Assembly (NCBI GenBank): GCA_043815185.1
Contig: JBDRJF010000024.1
Span: 64,533 to 128,532 of the forward strand
Length of the DNA stretch: 64,000 nt
Source of the DNA: Candidatus Omnitrophota bacterium
GTDB lineage: Bacteria > Omnitrophota > Gorgyraeia > Duberdicusellales > 4484-171
Direction: 5' to 3'
The position numbers were made by a program, and so were the translations under genes. Below, piece by piece: positions 3,060 to 48,509 of the stretch. Each line of letters begins with the position of its first letter. Positions within the stretch are counted from its first letter, which is position 1. Below the pieces are notes generated by a model. That model was given only the letters and a program-made list of their open reading frames with translations. It was not told where the DNA came from and did not search any database.

Positions 3060-3623
3060 TTACATTTTATAAAGTTCATGTTGTTGGATATACTTAGCGA
3101 CATTTTCAGTAACCAAATGCCTTATAGAACAGCCGTTTTTTACTAATTCCCGTATTTGAGATGAAGATGCTTCTATCTGCCGAATATTTACCGTATGGTA
3201 AAACTCATTGTCATCCAAAGGGTATTCCCTGCGTTTCCCAACTACTATTTTGACTTCTTTTTTTAAATCTTGATAATTCCTCCAAGTGGATAATGTCTCT
3301 GTTAAATCTGAACCGACAATGAGATAAAATTCATCTTCGGGAAATTTCTTTTTTAATTCCCGGATAGTATCAATAGTAAAAGAGACGCCTTCTCTTTTTA
3401 TCTCTAAATCCAAAACTTCAAATTTCTTATTGCCAAAAGTTGCTAATTTTGCCATTTCGAGCCGCAGTTTCGCATCAGCTTCTAAAGCCTCTTTATAGGG
3501 AGAGATATTGGTGGGAATAAAAAAAACTTTATCCAAGCTCAGTATCTCTGAAATGTCTTGAGCTAAGGTTAAATGCCCGATATGCGGAGGATTAAATGCT
3601 CCTCCCAATACGCCTATCTTCAT
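3060..3623 (-). CDS. nadD: nicotinate-nucleotide adenylyltransferase
   Basis: 187 aa with the N-terminal GGAFNPPHIGH nucleotidyltransferase motif. Confidence 0.9.
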   Translation of the reverse strand: MKIGVLGGAFNPPHIGHLTLAQDISEILSLDKVFFIPTNISPYKEALEADAKLRLEMAKLATFGNKKFEVLDLEIKREGVSFTIDTIRELKKKFPEDEFYLIVGSDLTETLSTWRNYQDLKKEVKIVVGKRREYPLDDNEFYHTVNIRQIEASSSQIRELVKNGCSIRHLVTENVAKYIQQHELYKM

Positions 3624-3628
3624 CTTTT

Positions 3629-4879
3629 TTATGTTCTTACCTGCCCGTTTCCTTTAGCTATATACTTATAAGTAGTTAGCTCTTCTAAACCCATAGGGCC
3701 TCGGGCATGCAGTTTGTCAGTAGAAATACCTATCTCTGCCCCTAATCCAAATTGGTAACCGTCACTAAAGCGAGTAGAGATATTTATGAAGCAGCAAGCA
3801 GAATCTACTTCTTTTACGAATTTACTAGCATTCTTAAAATTCTTAGTGAGAATACTCTCAGTATGCCTTGAGCCGTAAGTGTTAATATGTTTGATTGCCT
3901 CACCAACATTCTTGACTATCTTAATCGAAACAATCAGATCTAAATACTCTTTAGACCAATCAGCAGCGCTTGCTTTAGCCACTCCCGGTAGTATTTTCCT
4001 GCTTTGCTTATCAGCCCTTATCATAACTCCTAAGGAATCAAATTTCTTCTTCAAAACAGGCAAGAAACTCCTGGCAACCCCCTTATGGACAAGGATTGTC
4101 TCTACGGCATTACAAACCGAAGGCCTTTGAACCTTAGCATTAACGCATATTGTTAAAGCTTTTTTAAAATCAACTTGGCCATCGACGAATATATGGCAGA
4201 CTCCTTTATAGTGCTTTATCACCGGAATCTGCGAGATCTTAACTACTTTTCGTATCAAAGCCTCTCCGCCCCGGGGAATAACTAAATCAATGTATTTATC
4301 CTGTATCAAAAGTTCATCTACTATTTTGCGATCGACTCTATCAACTACGAAAAATACCGGAAAGTTAATGCCGTTCTTTCGGCAAGCTGTGGTTAACACC
4401 TTAGCGATAGCTTTATTAGAATTTATAGCATCCCCCCCGCCTCTTAGTATCCCTATATTCGAAGTTTTAAATAATAAGCCCACACAGTCGCTGGTAACAT
4501 TCGGCCTTGCTTCGTAAACAATCAATACCACCCCTATCGGGACTCTGACTCTCTGGACTGTTATTCCATTAGGCCTTTTGTTAGTTGATATAATTTGTCC
4601 GACCGGATCAGCTAAATTCGCTACTGTCATCAGAGAGGTACTCATCTCTTTAAGGCGCTTATCGTTTAGAGTTAATCTGTCGATAAAGCTTAAATTTAAG
4701 TTCTTCTTCCTGGCCAAAGCAATATCTTTTTTATTGGCCTGGATAATAACTCCTTTATTTTTTATCAAGGCCCGGGCCATATTTTGAAGAGCCCTGTTTT
4801 TCTGAGCAGTAGTTAGGTTGGCTAACTTATAGCTAGAGTCCTTGGCGTCTTTTACTAATTTTTTGACGTAGTTACTCAT
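3629..4879 (-). CDS. proA: gamma-glutamyl phosphate reductase
   Basis: 416 aa aldehyde-dehydrogenase-fold protein directly downstream of proB, with a ProA-typical sequence pattern throughout. Confidence 0.9.
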   Translation of the reverse strand: MSNYVKKLVKDAKDSSYKLANLTTAQKNRALQNMARALIKNKGVIIQANKKDIALARKKNLNLSFIDRLTLNDKRLKEMSTSLMTVANLADPVGQIISTNKRPNGITVQRVRVPIGVVLIVYEARPNVTSDCVGLLFKTSNIGILRGGGDAINSNKAIAKVLTTACRKNGINFPVFFVVDRVDRKIVDELLIQDKYIDLVIPRGGEALIRKVVKISQIPVIKHYKGVCHIFVDGQVDFKKALTICVNAKVQRPSVCNAVETILVHKGVARSFLPVLKKKFDSLGVMIRADKQSRKILPGVAKASAADWSKEYLDLIVSIKIVKNVGEAIKHINTYGSRHTESILTKNFKNASKFVKEVDSACCFINISTRFSDGYQFGLGAEIGISTDKLHARGPMGLEELTTYKYIAKGNGQVRT

Positions 4880-11208: not shown

Positions 11209-11218
11209 AGTTCCTATT

Positions 11219-11247
11219 ATTGTAGTATTTTCAATAGATTCTGACAA
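11219..11247 (-). promoter_or_regulatory. sigma-70-like promoter upstream of tRNA-Gln
   Basis: On the minus strand: TTGTCA (11247..11242), 17 nt, TACAAT (11224..11219). The tRNA 5' end lies about 10 nt downstream. Confidence 0.5.
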
Positions 11248-11312
11248 GGGCAATTTTACTTTCCTTACACCCATCAGCATTTGTGGCTATAATAGCATTG
11301 AATATTATAAAT

Positions 11313-11996
11313 TTATTTGCTATCCCTTACCGTTGCGTTAGCCAAACGATGCAATTCAGAGTTTGCTAAAGCCAGGACTTTCTTCTTAACTACCCTAGAA
11401 AAATACTCTCTTTCTGTTTTACTCATCTTCTCGCCTCTAAATTTCTTTAAAAAAAGTTCTTTTTGCCTAGGTGTGAAAAGTTGCGACATCGCATATTCCA
11501 AGGATAAATTGTCTCTCCTGACTCTTAAATCCTTAACACCTAACTCATCTTTTTTAAAATAATTATTAAAAACATGTTTCATTCTTTCTAAATTTAGTCT
11601 TCGTTCAGACACTACAACATCTTGGTTCTTTTTAAAATATTCGAGAAAAGAATTAAGCATTTCCTTATCTGAGTCTAAAAATACCGATTGTCTGAGAAGC
11701 TTATCCGCCCAGCCAAATTTTAGATGTAAATATTTATAAAAAGCAAGCGACACCAAAACAAGGCCTTTAAACAAAAGACTATAAAAGTTACTTTCTAACA
11801 TTCTAGTAACTTCCTTATAACTAAATTCATTTCTTTTACTAGCATTAGCTAACAAAAGAGGAAAACTCTCCCATAAACGGACATTTTTACTCCTTACTGT
11901 ATCAGAAAGCACTTTGTTTACGTCAAGATACATTTCTGTCTGAAACAAAGGGAGCCCTAAACGAGACAACCGTTCTAATAACTCTTTATCTTCCAT
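11313..11996 (-). CDS. hypothetical protein, partner of the NTase (possible C-terminal HTH)
   Basis: 227 aa. Own SD GAAGGAAGGA. Overlaps the upstream gene by 11 nt. C-terminal FTPRQKELFLKKF...VKKKVLALAN resembles a sigma-70 region-4/LuxR HTH. I recognise no family. Confidence 0.6.
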   Translation of the reverse strand: MEDKELLERLSRLGLPLFQTEMYLDVNKVLSDTVRSKNVRLWESFPLLLANASKRNEFSYKEVTRMLESNFYSLLFKGLVLVSLAFYKYLHLKFGWADKLLRQSVFLDSDKEMLNSFLEYFKKNQDVVVSERRLNLERMKHVFNNYFKKDELGVKDLRVRRDNLSLEYAMSQLFTPRQKELFLKKFRGEKMSKTEREYFSRVVKKKVLALANSELHRLANATVRDSK

Positions 11997-12573
11997 ATAT
12001 TCCTTCCTTCATCACTAATCGTAGAAATGAATCTAGATTTTTATTCACCTTATCTTGTGCAATTTCATACCAAGAAGTTTCTAAAAAACGCTCTTTGAGC
12101 ACTTCTAAATTAATATCTTTTCTCTTGAATTTAACCAAACCTAAACAATCCTCAAAATCAACCCCTGTGCCCCTAAATAGTTTACTTATGATGATGTCAT
12201 AGTAGTTTAATATTCCAACATAAATATAAGTAAATTCTTTAAGTAATATATTGTTGCCTTTTTCAAGAGGAGATTCTAATAACTTTGTTGTGTGTACTTT
12301 ATCGCCTCTAAATAAATCAAACGTATACTCTTCCTCCCTGCTCCAACCTACACCACTGGTGTTTCTGTATCCTAGATTTTTTAAAATATTGATTAAGTAA
12401 TCATATTCTTTCTCGATAGGAATAACAAAATCAATATCCTTAGTGGAATCTTTTACTCCTATTAAAGTTAATGCTGTTCCCCCACAAGCTATTAGATGAA
12501 CTTTTCTCTTTAAGAAACCATTCCACATACTCATATTTCCTAACAACCCTTCTTTATCTAATCTATATTCCAT
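11986..12573 (-). CDS. Pol-beta superfamily nucleotidyltransferase, AbiEii-like
   Basis: 195 aa with G-G-x13-D-x-D (ACGGTALTLIGVKDSTKDIDFVIP), spelled like AbiEii/DUF1814-type NTases. Confidence 0.6.
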   Translation of the reverse strand: MEYRLDKEGLLGNMSMWNGFLKRKVHLIACGGTALTLIGVKDSTKDIDFVIPIEKEYDYLINILKNLGYRNTSGVGWSREEEYTFDLFRGDKVHTTKLLESPLEKGNNILLKEFTYIYVGILNYYDIIISKLFRGTGVDFEDCLGLVKFKRKDINLEVLKERFLETSWYEIAQDKVNKNLDSFLRLVMKEGIYGR

Positions 12574-12591
12574 AAGACAATTTGTACATAT

Positions 12592-12632
12592 ATATACAAT
12601 AGATTGTATATTTTAATACAATTTATTGTATT
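12592..12632. promoter_or_regulatory. two perfect palindromic operator-like sites in the NTase leader
   Basis: ATATACAAT-AG-ATTGTATAT (12592..12611) and AATACAAT-TT-ATTGTATT (12615..12632), with extra ATTGTA/TGTACA half sites nearby. Confidence 0.6.
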
Positions 12633-12647
12633 ATCTCGTACAATTCA

Positions 12648-12676
12648 AATATACAATATATATATAGATTTGTCAA
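12648..12676 (-). promoter_or_regulatory. sigma-70-like promoter of the NTase pair
   Basis: On the minus strand: TTGACA (12676..12671), 17 nt, TATATT (12653..12648). Confidence 0.5.
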
Positions 12677-12699
12677 GCCTATTTATTCTCTGGATTTTA

Positions 12700-12856
12700 G
12701 GGGACGGTTCTCGTTGCTCTATCCTTTACTCGCACAACAAGTTATAAACGCAGTATTATAAGTCTTTTTAATTAAGGAAATAAGGCATAAGGGATAATAA
12801 TTGTCTGTTCATAATTAATTGGTGTGTAAGGGGTTACAGGCAAGAGAACCGTCCCC
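12700..12856. mobile_element. MITE-like element, repeat family R1 copy 1 (intact)
   Basis: 157 bp with no ORF. 13-bp perfect terminal inverted repeats GGGGACGGTTCTC / GAGAACCGTCCCC (17 of 18 if extended). Flanked by a direct TTA on both sides (12697..12699 and 12857..12859). Confidence 0.7.
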
Positions 12857-12990
12857 TTAAACATCATTAAGACCTTAGCCAATAAATAATTTCAGACTAA
12901 GAATTTGAATCGAATCGGGATACATCCTATTTGAATTTCTCTTACCAGGCTTAGCTTTTTTAAGTGGGATGTGTCCTGAAATAACTGATT

Positions 12991-25117: not shown

Positions 25118-25240
25118 GGGGGACGGTTCTCACTGCACTATCCTTTACCGACACAATAAGTTATAATCACACCATTATAAATTTCTAATTTAATTGAAAG
25201 AAAAATCCTTCTTTTTACGTCTATTATAGTAGAGAAAGGA
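25118..25240. repeat. repeat family R1 copy 2 (left end plus conserved body; right TIR not found)
   Basis: Begins with TTA then (G)GGGGACGGTTCTC as in copy 1. About 110 nt are near-identical by eye to copy 3 (CTATCCTTTAC... CATTATAAAT... CTAATTTAATTGAAAGAAAAA... CTTTTTACGTCTATTATA). Confidence 0.65.
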
Positions 25241-25273
25241 AACTCTTGAATATAATAGGCCACAAATAATAGT

Positions 25274-25360: not shown

Positions 25361-25639
25361 ATGACTACTTTAACAACTACTACAACAAGCAACGCAAAAG
25401 CACATTTTATTGCGATGGTGAGAAAAGCTCATGAATTAGGGCAAACCTACTTAATCACACACCGTGGCGAAGAATCAGCAGTTCTCTTGAGCAGCGAAGA
25501 TTATGAGGGGCTTTTGGAAACTTTGGATATTTTGAAAGACAATAAAGTTGTTGCTTCAATTATGGAATCTCTAAAAGATTTAAAGAGAGCTGAAATCTAT
25601 TCTTTTGAAGATGTTGTTGGACGAAAACAAAAGAAATGA
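25361..25639 (+). CDS. type II antitoxin, Phd/YefM family
   Basis: 92 aa with pattern AKAHFIAMVRKA...TYLITHRGEESAVLLSSEDYEGLLETL. Overlaps the toxin gene by ATGA. Confidence 0.85.
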   Translation: MTTLTTTTTSNAKAHFIAMVRKAHELGQTYLITHRGEESAVLLSSEDYEGLLETLDILKDNKVVASIMESLKDLKRAEIYSFEDVVGRKQKK

Positions 25640-25929
25640 GCCGCTATAATATCTACACCATTTGTTTCACTCGTACCTCAAAAAAACAATTTGAATCTCT
25701 TCCTTCTAAAATCAAAAAGGAAATCGCAAAAATATTAGAGGAAGAAATAGCTCACAATCCTCTATTGGGTAAACCATTACAGGGAGCATTAAAAGGACTT
25801 CGTTCTCAACGAATCGGAAATTTGCGAATAATCTATCAAATTATAAAGAATGAATTGGTCATAATAGTTATAAACCTTGAGCATCGAAAAAAAGTATATC
25901 AAGGGCTTAAATTAAAGAAAAAATGTTAA
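25636..25929 (+). CDS. type II toxin, RelE/ParE (StbE-like) family
   Basis: 97 aa with RIGNLRIIYQI...LVIIVINLEHRKKVY, typical of the RelE/ParE fold. Confidence 0.8.
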   Translation: MSRYNIYTICFTRTSKKQFESLPSKIKKEIAKILEEEIAHNPLLGKPLQGALKGLRSQRIGNLRIIYQIIKNELVIIVINLEHRKKVYQGLKLKKKC

Positions 25930-47592: not shown

Positions 47593-47735
47593 GGGGACGG
47601 TTCTCGTTACCCTATCCTTTACCCGCACAACAAGCTGTAAACACACCATTATAAATATCTAATTTAATTGAAAGAAAAAACTTTCTTTTTACGTCTATTA
47701 TAATAAGAGAGGTAAAAAAGAGGAGGGGCGTCCCC
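47593..47735. mobile_element. repeat family R1 copy 3 (left TIR intact, right TIR reduced to CGTCCCC)
   Basis: Starts GGGGACGGTTCTC and ends ...GGGGCGTCCCC. Flanks are TCA and TAA (both TNA). The body is near-identical by eye to copy 2. Confidence 0.65.
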
Positions 47736-47773
47736 TAAGATAGATTTTGGGTGTTAGAACGATAAAATATAAT

Positions 47774-47885: not shown

Positions 47886-48509
47886 ATGAAAAGAACTTAC
47901 GTTTACATTGACGGGTTTAATTTATACTACCGCGCTATTAAAAATACCCCTTATAAATGGCTTGATTTAAAAGTTCTTTGCCAAAAGCTTCTTACTAAAG
48001 ATCATAGAATTGATGCACTTAAATATTTTACTGCAATCGTATCGGGTAAAAAAGACTCCCAAAAACCTATCCGACAACAGACTTATATTAGAGCGCTTGA
48101 GAAATATAACCCAGAAGTATCTGTATACTACGGCCAATTTCGTAGCCATAGGCAAAAAGCACTTCTTGCTTACCCAACTAAAAAAAAGAAATTTGAATAC
48201 ATCATTAAAACGGAAGAGAAAGGTTCTGATGTCAATCTTGCTGTACATCTTTTAAATGATGGCTGGCTTAATAAATATGACTGTGCGGTGCTAATTTCAA
48301 ATGATAGCGACCTTGCAGAGGCAATAAATCTTGTTAAAAAAGAACATAGCAAGTTAATAGGTTTGCTTCTACCTACGAATTGTTACCCGTCAAAAGAATT
48401 AATGCCTTTGGTTGATTTTGTTAAAACTATAAGAAAAGGTGTGCTGGCGATATCACAGTTGCCAAATTTGATACCAGGAACAAAAATACATAAGCCAATA
48501 ACATGGTAA
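47886..48509 (+). CDS. NYN (LabA/PIN-like) domain protein, predicted ribonuclease
   Basis: 207 aa with acidic motifs YIDGFNLYY, EKGSDVNLA and SNDSDL in the NYN order. Confidence 0.75.
   Translation: MKRTYVYIDGFNLYYRAIKNTPYKWLDLKVLCQKLLTKDHRIDALKYFTAIVSGKKDSQKPIRQQTYIRALEKYNPEVSVYYGQFRSHRQKALLAYPTKKKKFEYIIKTEEKGSDVNLAVHLLNDGWLNKYDCAVLISNDSDLAEAINLVKKEHSKLIGLLLPTNCYPSKELMPLVDFVKTIRKGVLAISQLPNLIPGTKIHKPITW

Follow-up and report, generated by a model that had tools for sequence, protein, structure and literature searches.

We asked what kind of element underlies a 157-bp inverted repeat (c1; positions 12700 to 12856, + strand) in a 64-kb window (i.e., the whole stretch of 64,000 nucleotides analyzed here) of an Omnitrophota contig. 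The initial annotation described c1 as an intact MITE with 13-bp terminal inverted repeats (TIRs), a TTA target duplication, and no internal gene. It also guessed at an affiliation with the IS5 group, placed any autonomous parent outside the window, and noted two further partial copies sharing the left end.

The basic geometry of this description was borne out. The 13-mer GGGGACGGTTCTC is located at positions 12700 to 12712 (+), and its exact reverse complement is located at positions 12844 to 12856. Moreover, A12699 pairs with T12857, which brings the perfect inverted repeat to 14 bp. Beyond the tip, the inverted match becomes imperfect: the extended match of 17 of 18 nucleotides was reproduced by alignment, 30-nt arms are 80% identical, and the right half of c1, when inverted, is 73% identical to the left-end module over 63 nt. 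Thus considered, the "TIR" of c1 is a module of approximately 65 nt with four conserved boxes, namely, the 13-mer, TAWCC (at approximately +21), CAAnAAGTTAnnA (approximately +38), and CCATTAT or CAATTAT (approximately +56). In the left-end (LE) module (12700 to 12768, + strand), the boxes read TATCC, CAAnAAGTTATAA, and ATTAT, in addition to the invariant 13-mer. The right-end (RE) module (12791 to 12856, − strand) is inverted and carries an RE-specific signature (TTATGAACAGACAATTATT). As annotated, no ORF is contained wholly within c1; a 47-aa TTG ORF (12604 to 12747) only overlaps its left edge. As single-stranded DNA, c1 folds into a long imperfect hairpin (fold z-scores, −5.5 and −4.5), in which the sole strong structure is formed by the two ends of the element paired with each other. 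We looked for a conserved hairpin or covariation within the terminal modules and found none.

Regarding statistical significance, a lone 13-mer inverted repeat is not rare, because at least one perfect 13-mer inverted repeat within 250 nt was present in 27 of 100 Markov-shuffled windows. The 13-mer itself occurs in four exact copies in the window (approximately 0.002 expected per copy), and a scan of the window with a module profile detected exactly four modules, belonging to three elements in 64 kb, with zero degenerate extras. The other two elements (c2 and c3) are 86% identical to each other over 124 nt, and c1 is approximately 80% identical to them over 74 to 88 nt. The recurrence of the 13-mer, together with 65 to 124 nt of homology between copies, is far beyond chance.

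Representative genomes were scanned using the 13-mer plus CTATCC as a query, and the only real matches were in one Omnitrophota MAG ("Ca. Susulua stagnicola"). The GltX protein encoded in the window likewise points to Omnitrophota. A scan of metagenomes yielded 70 loci, and there were zero matches among the viral contigs searched. In the metagenomic and MAG contigs, the terminal module (approximately 65 nt) flanks units of approximately 760 to 790 bp in inverted orientation, and the only gene in these units encodes a HUH/Y1 transposase of approximately 190 aa. Six transposase-bearing loci with the shared ends were used (L017, L067, L041, L080, L086, and L092). The inverted 13-mers are exact at both ends of the full-length units of L017 (222 to 1009) and L067 (640 to 1429), and those of L041 (2438 to 3229) include one mismatch at the LE. 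In several metagenomic loci, the left module is followed by the same 5′ untranslated region (5′UTR) as in c2 and c3 (with a GAAAGAA..TTCTTTC hairpin and a ribosome-binding site) and then directly by the transposase ORF. No Y1 transposase ORF was detected in the 64-kb window by tblastn or with the family profile, in agreement with the annotated absence of a transposase, and the autonomous-looking parent proposed to lie elsewhere has its counterpart in these Y1-bearing units of related Omnitrophota contigs.

The encoded proteins scored 64 to 70 bits against Pfam Y1_Tnp (cutoff, 23). Their best NCBIfam model was the REP-associated tyrosine transposase (REP_Tyr_transpos; 71 bits, under its cutoff of 80), and the same transposases scored 24.9 bits against NCBIfam transpos_IS200 (cutoff, 55). 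A family profile of 26 homologues was compared with solved structures, of which E. coli TnpA-REP was the best match (4ER8; E value, 2e-6); the E values were 7.5e-4 for ISDra2 TnpA and 0.5 for IS608 TnpA. All 26 homologues have the HUH histidines and the tyrosine of YIELNP. The transposases are 181 to 203 aa long (some homologues, approximately 225 aa), and no Pfam domain other than Y1_Tnp was reported for those of 189 to 190 aa.

For an independent test of the association, homologues were retrieved by protein similarity alone (3,305 proteins at an E value of ≤1e-20); where source names were given, almost all were from Omnitrophota. At three loci chosen by protein only (84, 66, and 61% identity to the query), the exact 13-mer was present at all six ends, and the inverted 13-mers were 757 to 783 bp apart. 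The DNA termini are therefore more conserved than the protein that they flank.

A second type of Y1 gene (N terminus, ..NGYDYSQTNHYFVT..) follows the same left end and 5′UTR at L008, L020, L023 (158 to 886), and L029 (601 to 1150); the dimers of L003 and L070 were listed with this type. It is accompanied by canonical GTAG REPs (GTAGGGGCCGGCCTTGCGTCGGCCC) and by tandem "SARYNT" repeats within the ORF, several copies are frameshifted, and a right end was not found for this gene type. GTAG REPs and tandem "SARYNT" repeats inside the ORF have been reported for TnpAY1 subclass 2.4.

We classified the window copies using LE and RE profiles that were built only from the ends of the six transposase-bearing elements. 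The left half of c1 scored 56.1 bits with the LE profile and 22.7 bits with the RE profile, and the right half scored 30.8 and 44.7 bits, respectively. Because its halves score as LE and RE, respectively, c1 is composed of an LE, a linker of approximately 22 nt, and an inverted RE, i.e., a non-autonomous internal-deletion derivative. Over 62 nt, the c1 LE has 84% identity with its counterpart at the L080 transposase locus, and the c1 RE matches the RE of L067 at 50 of 63 nt and L047 at 82% over 61 nt. Noncoding LE+RE dimers of 145 to 216 bp are a common form in other contigs, and some of those in other Omnitrophota contigs align with c1 from end to end (70 to 72% identity).

Both c2 (LE, 56.4 bits; RE, 23.7 bits) and c3 (LE, 51.8 bits; RE, 22.6 bits) were classified as left ends. 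They are real copies, as had been annotated, and the position given for c3 (47593) was right, while c2 starts at 25119 and not at 25118. Their interpretation as truncated MITEs did not hold, as they are left ends still joined to the 5′UTR of a lost transposase gene. In c2 (25119 to 25242, + strand), the LE module is followed by a remnant of this 5′UTR (hairpin GAAAGAA..TTCTTT), and the gene and the RE are missing; c2 is a one-ended relic, an LE and 5′UTR with everything else replaced. In c3 (47593 to 47737, + strand), the LE module and the 5′UTR up to the ribosome-binding site run without a gap into the terminal 7 nt of an RE (CGTCCCC), followed by TA. This structure evidently represents an internal-deletion derivative, i.e., an in situ deletion caught in the act. 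In the locus set, a full unit occurs together with a deletion form (LE-5′UTR-RE tip), a dimer (LE+RE), and a solo LE.

On the basis of these sequence comparisons, c1 is probably a miniature non-autonomous derivative of an Omnitrophota RAYT-type (RAYT/TnpA-REP) Y1 element of approximately 760 to 790 bp, having kept the ends and lost the interior. In this parent element, a HUH/Y1 gene of approximately 190 aa lies between TIRs of approximately 65 bp that start with GGGGACGGTTCTC. Mechanistically, the two ends of c1 would pair into a hairpin in single-stranded DNA (e.g., in the lagging-strand template), and a Y1 transposase, assumed to be supplied from elsewhere in the genome, would recognize the conserved termini and cut and rejoin single strands. 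The element would thereby be excised or copied with no target-site duplication. Such single-strand cutting and rejoining without duplication has been shown experimentally for the TnpA proteins of IS608 and ISDra2, and cleavage and rejoining of REPs have been shown experimentally for E. coli TnpA-REP. We infer that c1 is likely mobilized, or at least processed, in trans by a genomic Y1 transposase, now or formerly.

The same structure might also have arisen if a resident full-length unit lost its interior in situ, with the resulting dimer never having transposed. This is the strongest of the alternatives, and we consider it unlikely. It finds a precedent in c3, which exhibits such an in situ deletion, and in the one-ended c2. 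Furthermore, transposase loci appear positionally fixed across samples: the P0122 and P0133 transposase genes each occupy one fixed locus in 8 to 10 contigs from different samples, and the full-length unit may accordingly not move. That no clean empty site was recovered for c1 has the same bearing; its absence upstream of eight related DUF6036 loci favors the Y1 derivative. The element lies in an accessory segment of 1.77 kb (11209 to 12982), which comprises c1, a DUF6036 gene, and a 227-aa gene and is located between a small gene after gltX and tRNA-Gln. In L076, the closest relative (approximately 90% nucleotide identity across gltX and metH), the whole segment is absent (compared with 6473 to 6488 of L076), and the small gene that lies downstream of gltX is followed at once by tRNA-Gln. 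Eight loci contain a DUF6036 operon and promoter with 85 to 94% identity, including three that are syntenic with gltX; none of the eight contains c1, and approximately 75 nt around c1 differ in all of them. A clean empty site was sought in L076, L078, and the seven other DUF6036 loci, and no precise junction was found; in L078, the only relative of the island that could be aligned on both sides of c1, 15 unrelated nucleotides replace 233 nt including c1. The comparison with empty sites proposed in the initial annotation therefore showed the absence of c1 from the eight DUF6036 loci and from L076, but no precise junction could be read. Against a dimer that never moved, dimers of similar size (145 to 216 bp) recur in many unrelated contexts, and some of these match c1 over the whole length, including the linker; the common linker therefore suggests that c1 and these dimers descend from an ancestral dimer and did not each arise by a separate deletion. 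The 14-bp termini of c1 are also still perfect.

Several other features of the accessory segment were observed. L076 contains a DUF2490 gene instead, located on the opposite side of the tRNA. In one relative, the copy of the DUF6036 operon shows 91% identity, compared with only 77% nucleotide identity for the gltX region, which suggests horizontal movement of the DUF6036 cassette. The promoter of this nucleotidyltransferase operon (12648 to 12676, − strand) is sigma-70-like (11 of 12 matches), and 24 nt separate its −35 box from the c1 LE tip upstream. Repeated TTGTATA/TATACAA motifs form overlapping inverted repeats over the promoter and leader (12582 to 12665) and are kept in all eight related loci; they probably constitute an operator through which the cassette regulates itself. 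Between the small gene and c1 lies another, unrelated palindromic element (GGACACATCC...GGATGTATCC; 12916 to 12975), of which L078, L095, and L096 have a longer version ahead of the DUF6036 promoter. As for c1, it is an ordinary repeat whose effect on neighboring genes is not evident.

We then considered whether c1 is a classical DDE MITE, resembling either IS5/PIF elements (TNA duplication) or IS630/mariner elements (TA duplication). The TIR architecture is compatible with this, and TTA is present directly outside both ends, as annotated (12697 to 12699 and, abutting the right end, 12857 to 12859). Among 49 nonredundant ends, the outside flank follows the consensus WTA (T at −2, 76%; A at −1, 71%), and 29 (59%) abut TA. 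TA was present on both sides in 5 of 14 scored inverted pairs, i.e., in a minority. A 3-bp direct repeat occurred in 1 of the 14 pairs, c1 alone, and position-specific flank frequencies predict such a repeat by chance in approximately 3.5% of elements (approximately 0.5 expected in 14). Because one observed case compares with approximately 0.5 expected by chance, the TTA at c1 is not evidence of a target duplication, contrary to its original reading. The c1 TTA fits the WTA end preference of a family that has no target-duplication feature. To our knowledge, Y1/HUH transposases make no target duplication, as established for IS608 and ISDra2, and the missing family-wide duplication agrees with a Y1 enzyme. 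In addition, each full-length element with such termini encodes a RAYT-type Y1/HUH transposase and nothing else, and these ends were not seen to enclose a DDE gene. These results remove the basis for the guess of an IS5-group element, and we regard a DDE origin as very improbable.

Equally improbable is that the module represents a structured noncoding RNA or a cis-regulatory or recombination site (e.g., a terminator, an insulator, or a landing site for toxin-antitoxin genes): although the three window copies, L002, and L036 adjoin toxin-antitoxin-like cassettes, c1 is close to a promoter, and its hairpin is strong, there were no Rfam matches at gathering or permissive thresholds other than spurious ones to miRNA hairpins, no conserved intramodule structure, no covariation, and no U-tract terminator, other solo ends lie beside housekeeping genes, and the sequence is fully accounted for by its direct physical link to Y1 transposase genes. 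The Rfam searches covered the window region and ten related loci and, apart from these spurious matches, returned only tRNAs and one nhaA-I. Two narrower candidates were also rejected. An integron attC-like or dif-like site, which was suggested by the cassettes with their own promoters after c2, c3, and L002, was dropped once the module was found on Y1 transposase genes, and a tmRNA- or tRNA-like 5′ end, which was suggested by GGGGAC, was negative with ARAGORN and Rfam.

The adjoining cassettes themselves are small and accessory. They are located directly 3′ of solo or remnant left ends, each with its own extended −10 promoter; TATGGTATAT, which is common upstream of the cassettes, is merely this promoter and lies outside the element. 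Beside c1 is the DUF6036 nucleotidyltransferase and 227-aa gene cassette (11313 to 12573). The cassette downstream of c2 is a toxin-antitoxin pair, Phd/ParE (25361 to 25929), under its own promoter, and that downstream of c3 is an NYN-domain gene (47886 to 48509). The corresponding cassettes encode BrnT and an RHH protein in L002 (402 to 879, reverse complement) and Phd and Doc in L036 (528 to 1145). The association between ends and cassettes is unproven because other solo ends adjoin housekeeping genes.

Many termini have a tandem duplication directly outside, consisting of 5 to 12 nt of flank and GGGGAC(GGT) (e.g., GGGGACCAATCA GGGGACCAATCA GGGGACGGTTCTC). These duplications were observed at L080 (1403 to 1439 and 2171 to 2200), L041 (approximately 3229 to 3260), L032 (approximately 4069 to 4100), L050, L018, L042, L075 (1030 to 1072), and L017 (986 to 1009). 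They were present at 7 of the 49 nonredundant Omnitrophota-type ends and at several Clostridia-type ends and at none of the window copies. In nearly all cases, the junction immediately follows GGGGAC, and it may mark the nick site of the enzyme, whose cutting position we infer.

The exact 13-mer was also observed in higher-GC contigs, including MAGs of Eubacteriales and Lachnospiraceae. There, it forms the loop of a hairpin whose stem (7 to 9 bp) varies by locus, sometimes in tandem or in perfect long palindromes (L004, 3648 to 3680; L005, 724 to 760; L021, 1940 to 2025; L022; L030; L036, 180 to 260 and 1415 to 1450; L042, 2094 to 2163; L054; L055; L062; and L075). In L075, a Y1 ORF (38% identical) lies between two such hairpin-loop ends. 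When the literature was searched in full text for DNA and RNA forms of the 13-mer in both orientations, the only hit was an unrelated C. elegans paper, present in two versions.

A broader reading, which we find doubtful as a whole, is that Omnitrophota carry a phylum-wide, still undescribed replicator of the RAYT/TIRYT type with asymmetric ends of approximately 65 bp. Under this reading, GGGGACGGTTCTC may be the recognition and cleavage site, invariant across transposases that are 38 to 84% identical and common to Clostridia-like contigs. The recurrent tandem duplications of flank and GGGGAC suggest that the enzyme may cut directly after GGGGAC. The transposase gene may also be recurrently replaced by toxin-antitoxin or defense cassettes (c2, c3, L002, and L036), in which case the ends would be carriers or landing pads for such cassettes.

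How the probable Y1 derivative compares with known systems can now be considered, beginning with MITEs. Like IS5/PIF-Harbinger MITEs, c1 has TIRs starting with GG, A+T-rich flanks, and TTA on both sides; in contrast to these, its parent enzyme is not of the DDE type, and other members of the family do not show the 3-bp duplication. More generally, c1 resembles a MITE in being short and noncoding, in having TIRs, and in having an autonomous relative with a transposase in Omnitrophota contigs, but its family lacks a target-site duplication of fixed length. Reassigning c1 from a DDE-type MITE to a Y1/HUH miniature of the RAYT/TIRYT type changes what is expected of it, i.e., single-strand cutting and rejoining and no target duplication.

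Elements of the IS200/IS605 family lack TIRs, and their subterminal hairpins share one orientation. The Omnitrophota elements share with them the HUH/Y1 superfamily (Pfam Y1_Tnp), the lack of a target duplication, and noncoding derivatives that keep both ends (PATEs in IS200/IS605). Their ends differ, as they are long inverted repeats without a conserved local hairpin. Membership in this family was ruled out on the basis of the score with the IS200 model (24.9 bits versus a cutoff of 55), the E value with IS608 TnpA (0.5), and the presence of TIRs.

A further parallel is found in REPINs, which Ton-Hoang et al. reportedly described in 2012 as being mobilized by RAYTs. REPINs are REP doublets that form hairpins and are mobilized by RAYTs (Bertels and Rainey 2011, PMC3116915). 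Similarly, c1 is a short, noncoding, and non-autonomous doublet of two inverted units with a hairpin fold, for which no target duplication is expected, and the Omnitrophota repeat both flanks a RAYT-type gene and is dispersed as inverted doublets. However, the Omnitrophota units are approximately 65 nt long and have no internal palindrome or GTAG tag, whereas REPs are hairpins of 20 to 40 nt with a 5′ GTAG, and the two units of c1 (LE versus RE) are nonidentical, unlike those of REPINs. The Omnitrophota elements would work like REPIN/RAYT systems and fail the definition of a REP as a GTAG-tagged hairpin.

The closest described kind appears to be the TIR-flanked RAYT (TIRtron/TIRYT), a putative assignment based on architecture. 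In the description by Di Nocera et al. (2013, PMC3733652), RAYT-like genes with long TIRs in place of GTAG REPs are named "TIRtrons" and their enzymes "TIRYTs"; many of the TIRs share GGGGWSAS (GGGG[AT][CG]A[CG]), and the families are moderately abundant and occur as singles, dimers, and clusters. According to Quentin et al. (2018, PMC6006769), TIRYTs equate with TnpAY1 subclass 2.1 (RAYT group 1), which has the widest taxonomic spread, no REPs nearby, and a C-terminal HTH or Bac_DnaA_C-like extension. The Omnitrophota elements agree with TIRtrons in having a Y1/HUH gene between long inverted repeats without self-complementarity (six loci). Their TIR start (GGGGACGG) matches GGGGWSAS at 7 of 8 positions, with G instead of A at position 7. 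Single TIRs and inverted TIR dimers are also found apart from the gene, and the position of the transposase appears stable. In contrast to subclass 2.1, the Omnitrophota proteins are short (181 to 203 aa) and, by Pfam, without the C-terminal HTH/DnaA-like domain. Another difference from TIRtrons is that the left and right TIRs of the Omnitrophota elements are distinguishable, and the dimers are therefore LE+RE deletion derivatives. All stages from the full unit to the solo LE thus occur side by side and provide natural evidence for the origin of TIR dimers, which the TIRYT literature left open.

The class of TIR-flanked RAYTs accordingly extends to Omnitrophota, which is not among the phyla named in the excerpts of PMC3733652 and PMC6006769. 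The c1 element belongs to a described but little-studied class in an uncultured host phylum, and the invariant 13-mer offers a concrete substrate for the biochemistry of an uncharacterized RAYT clade.
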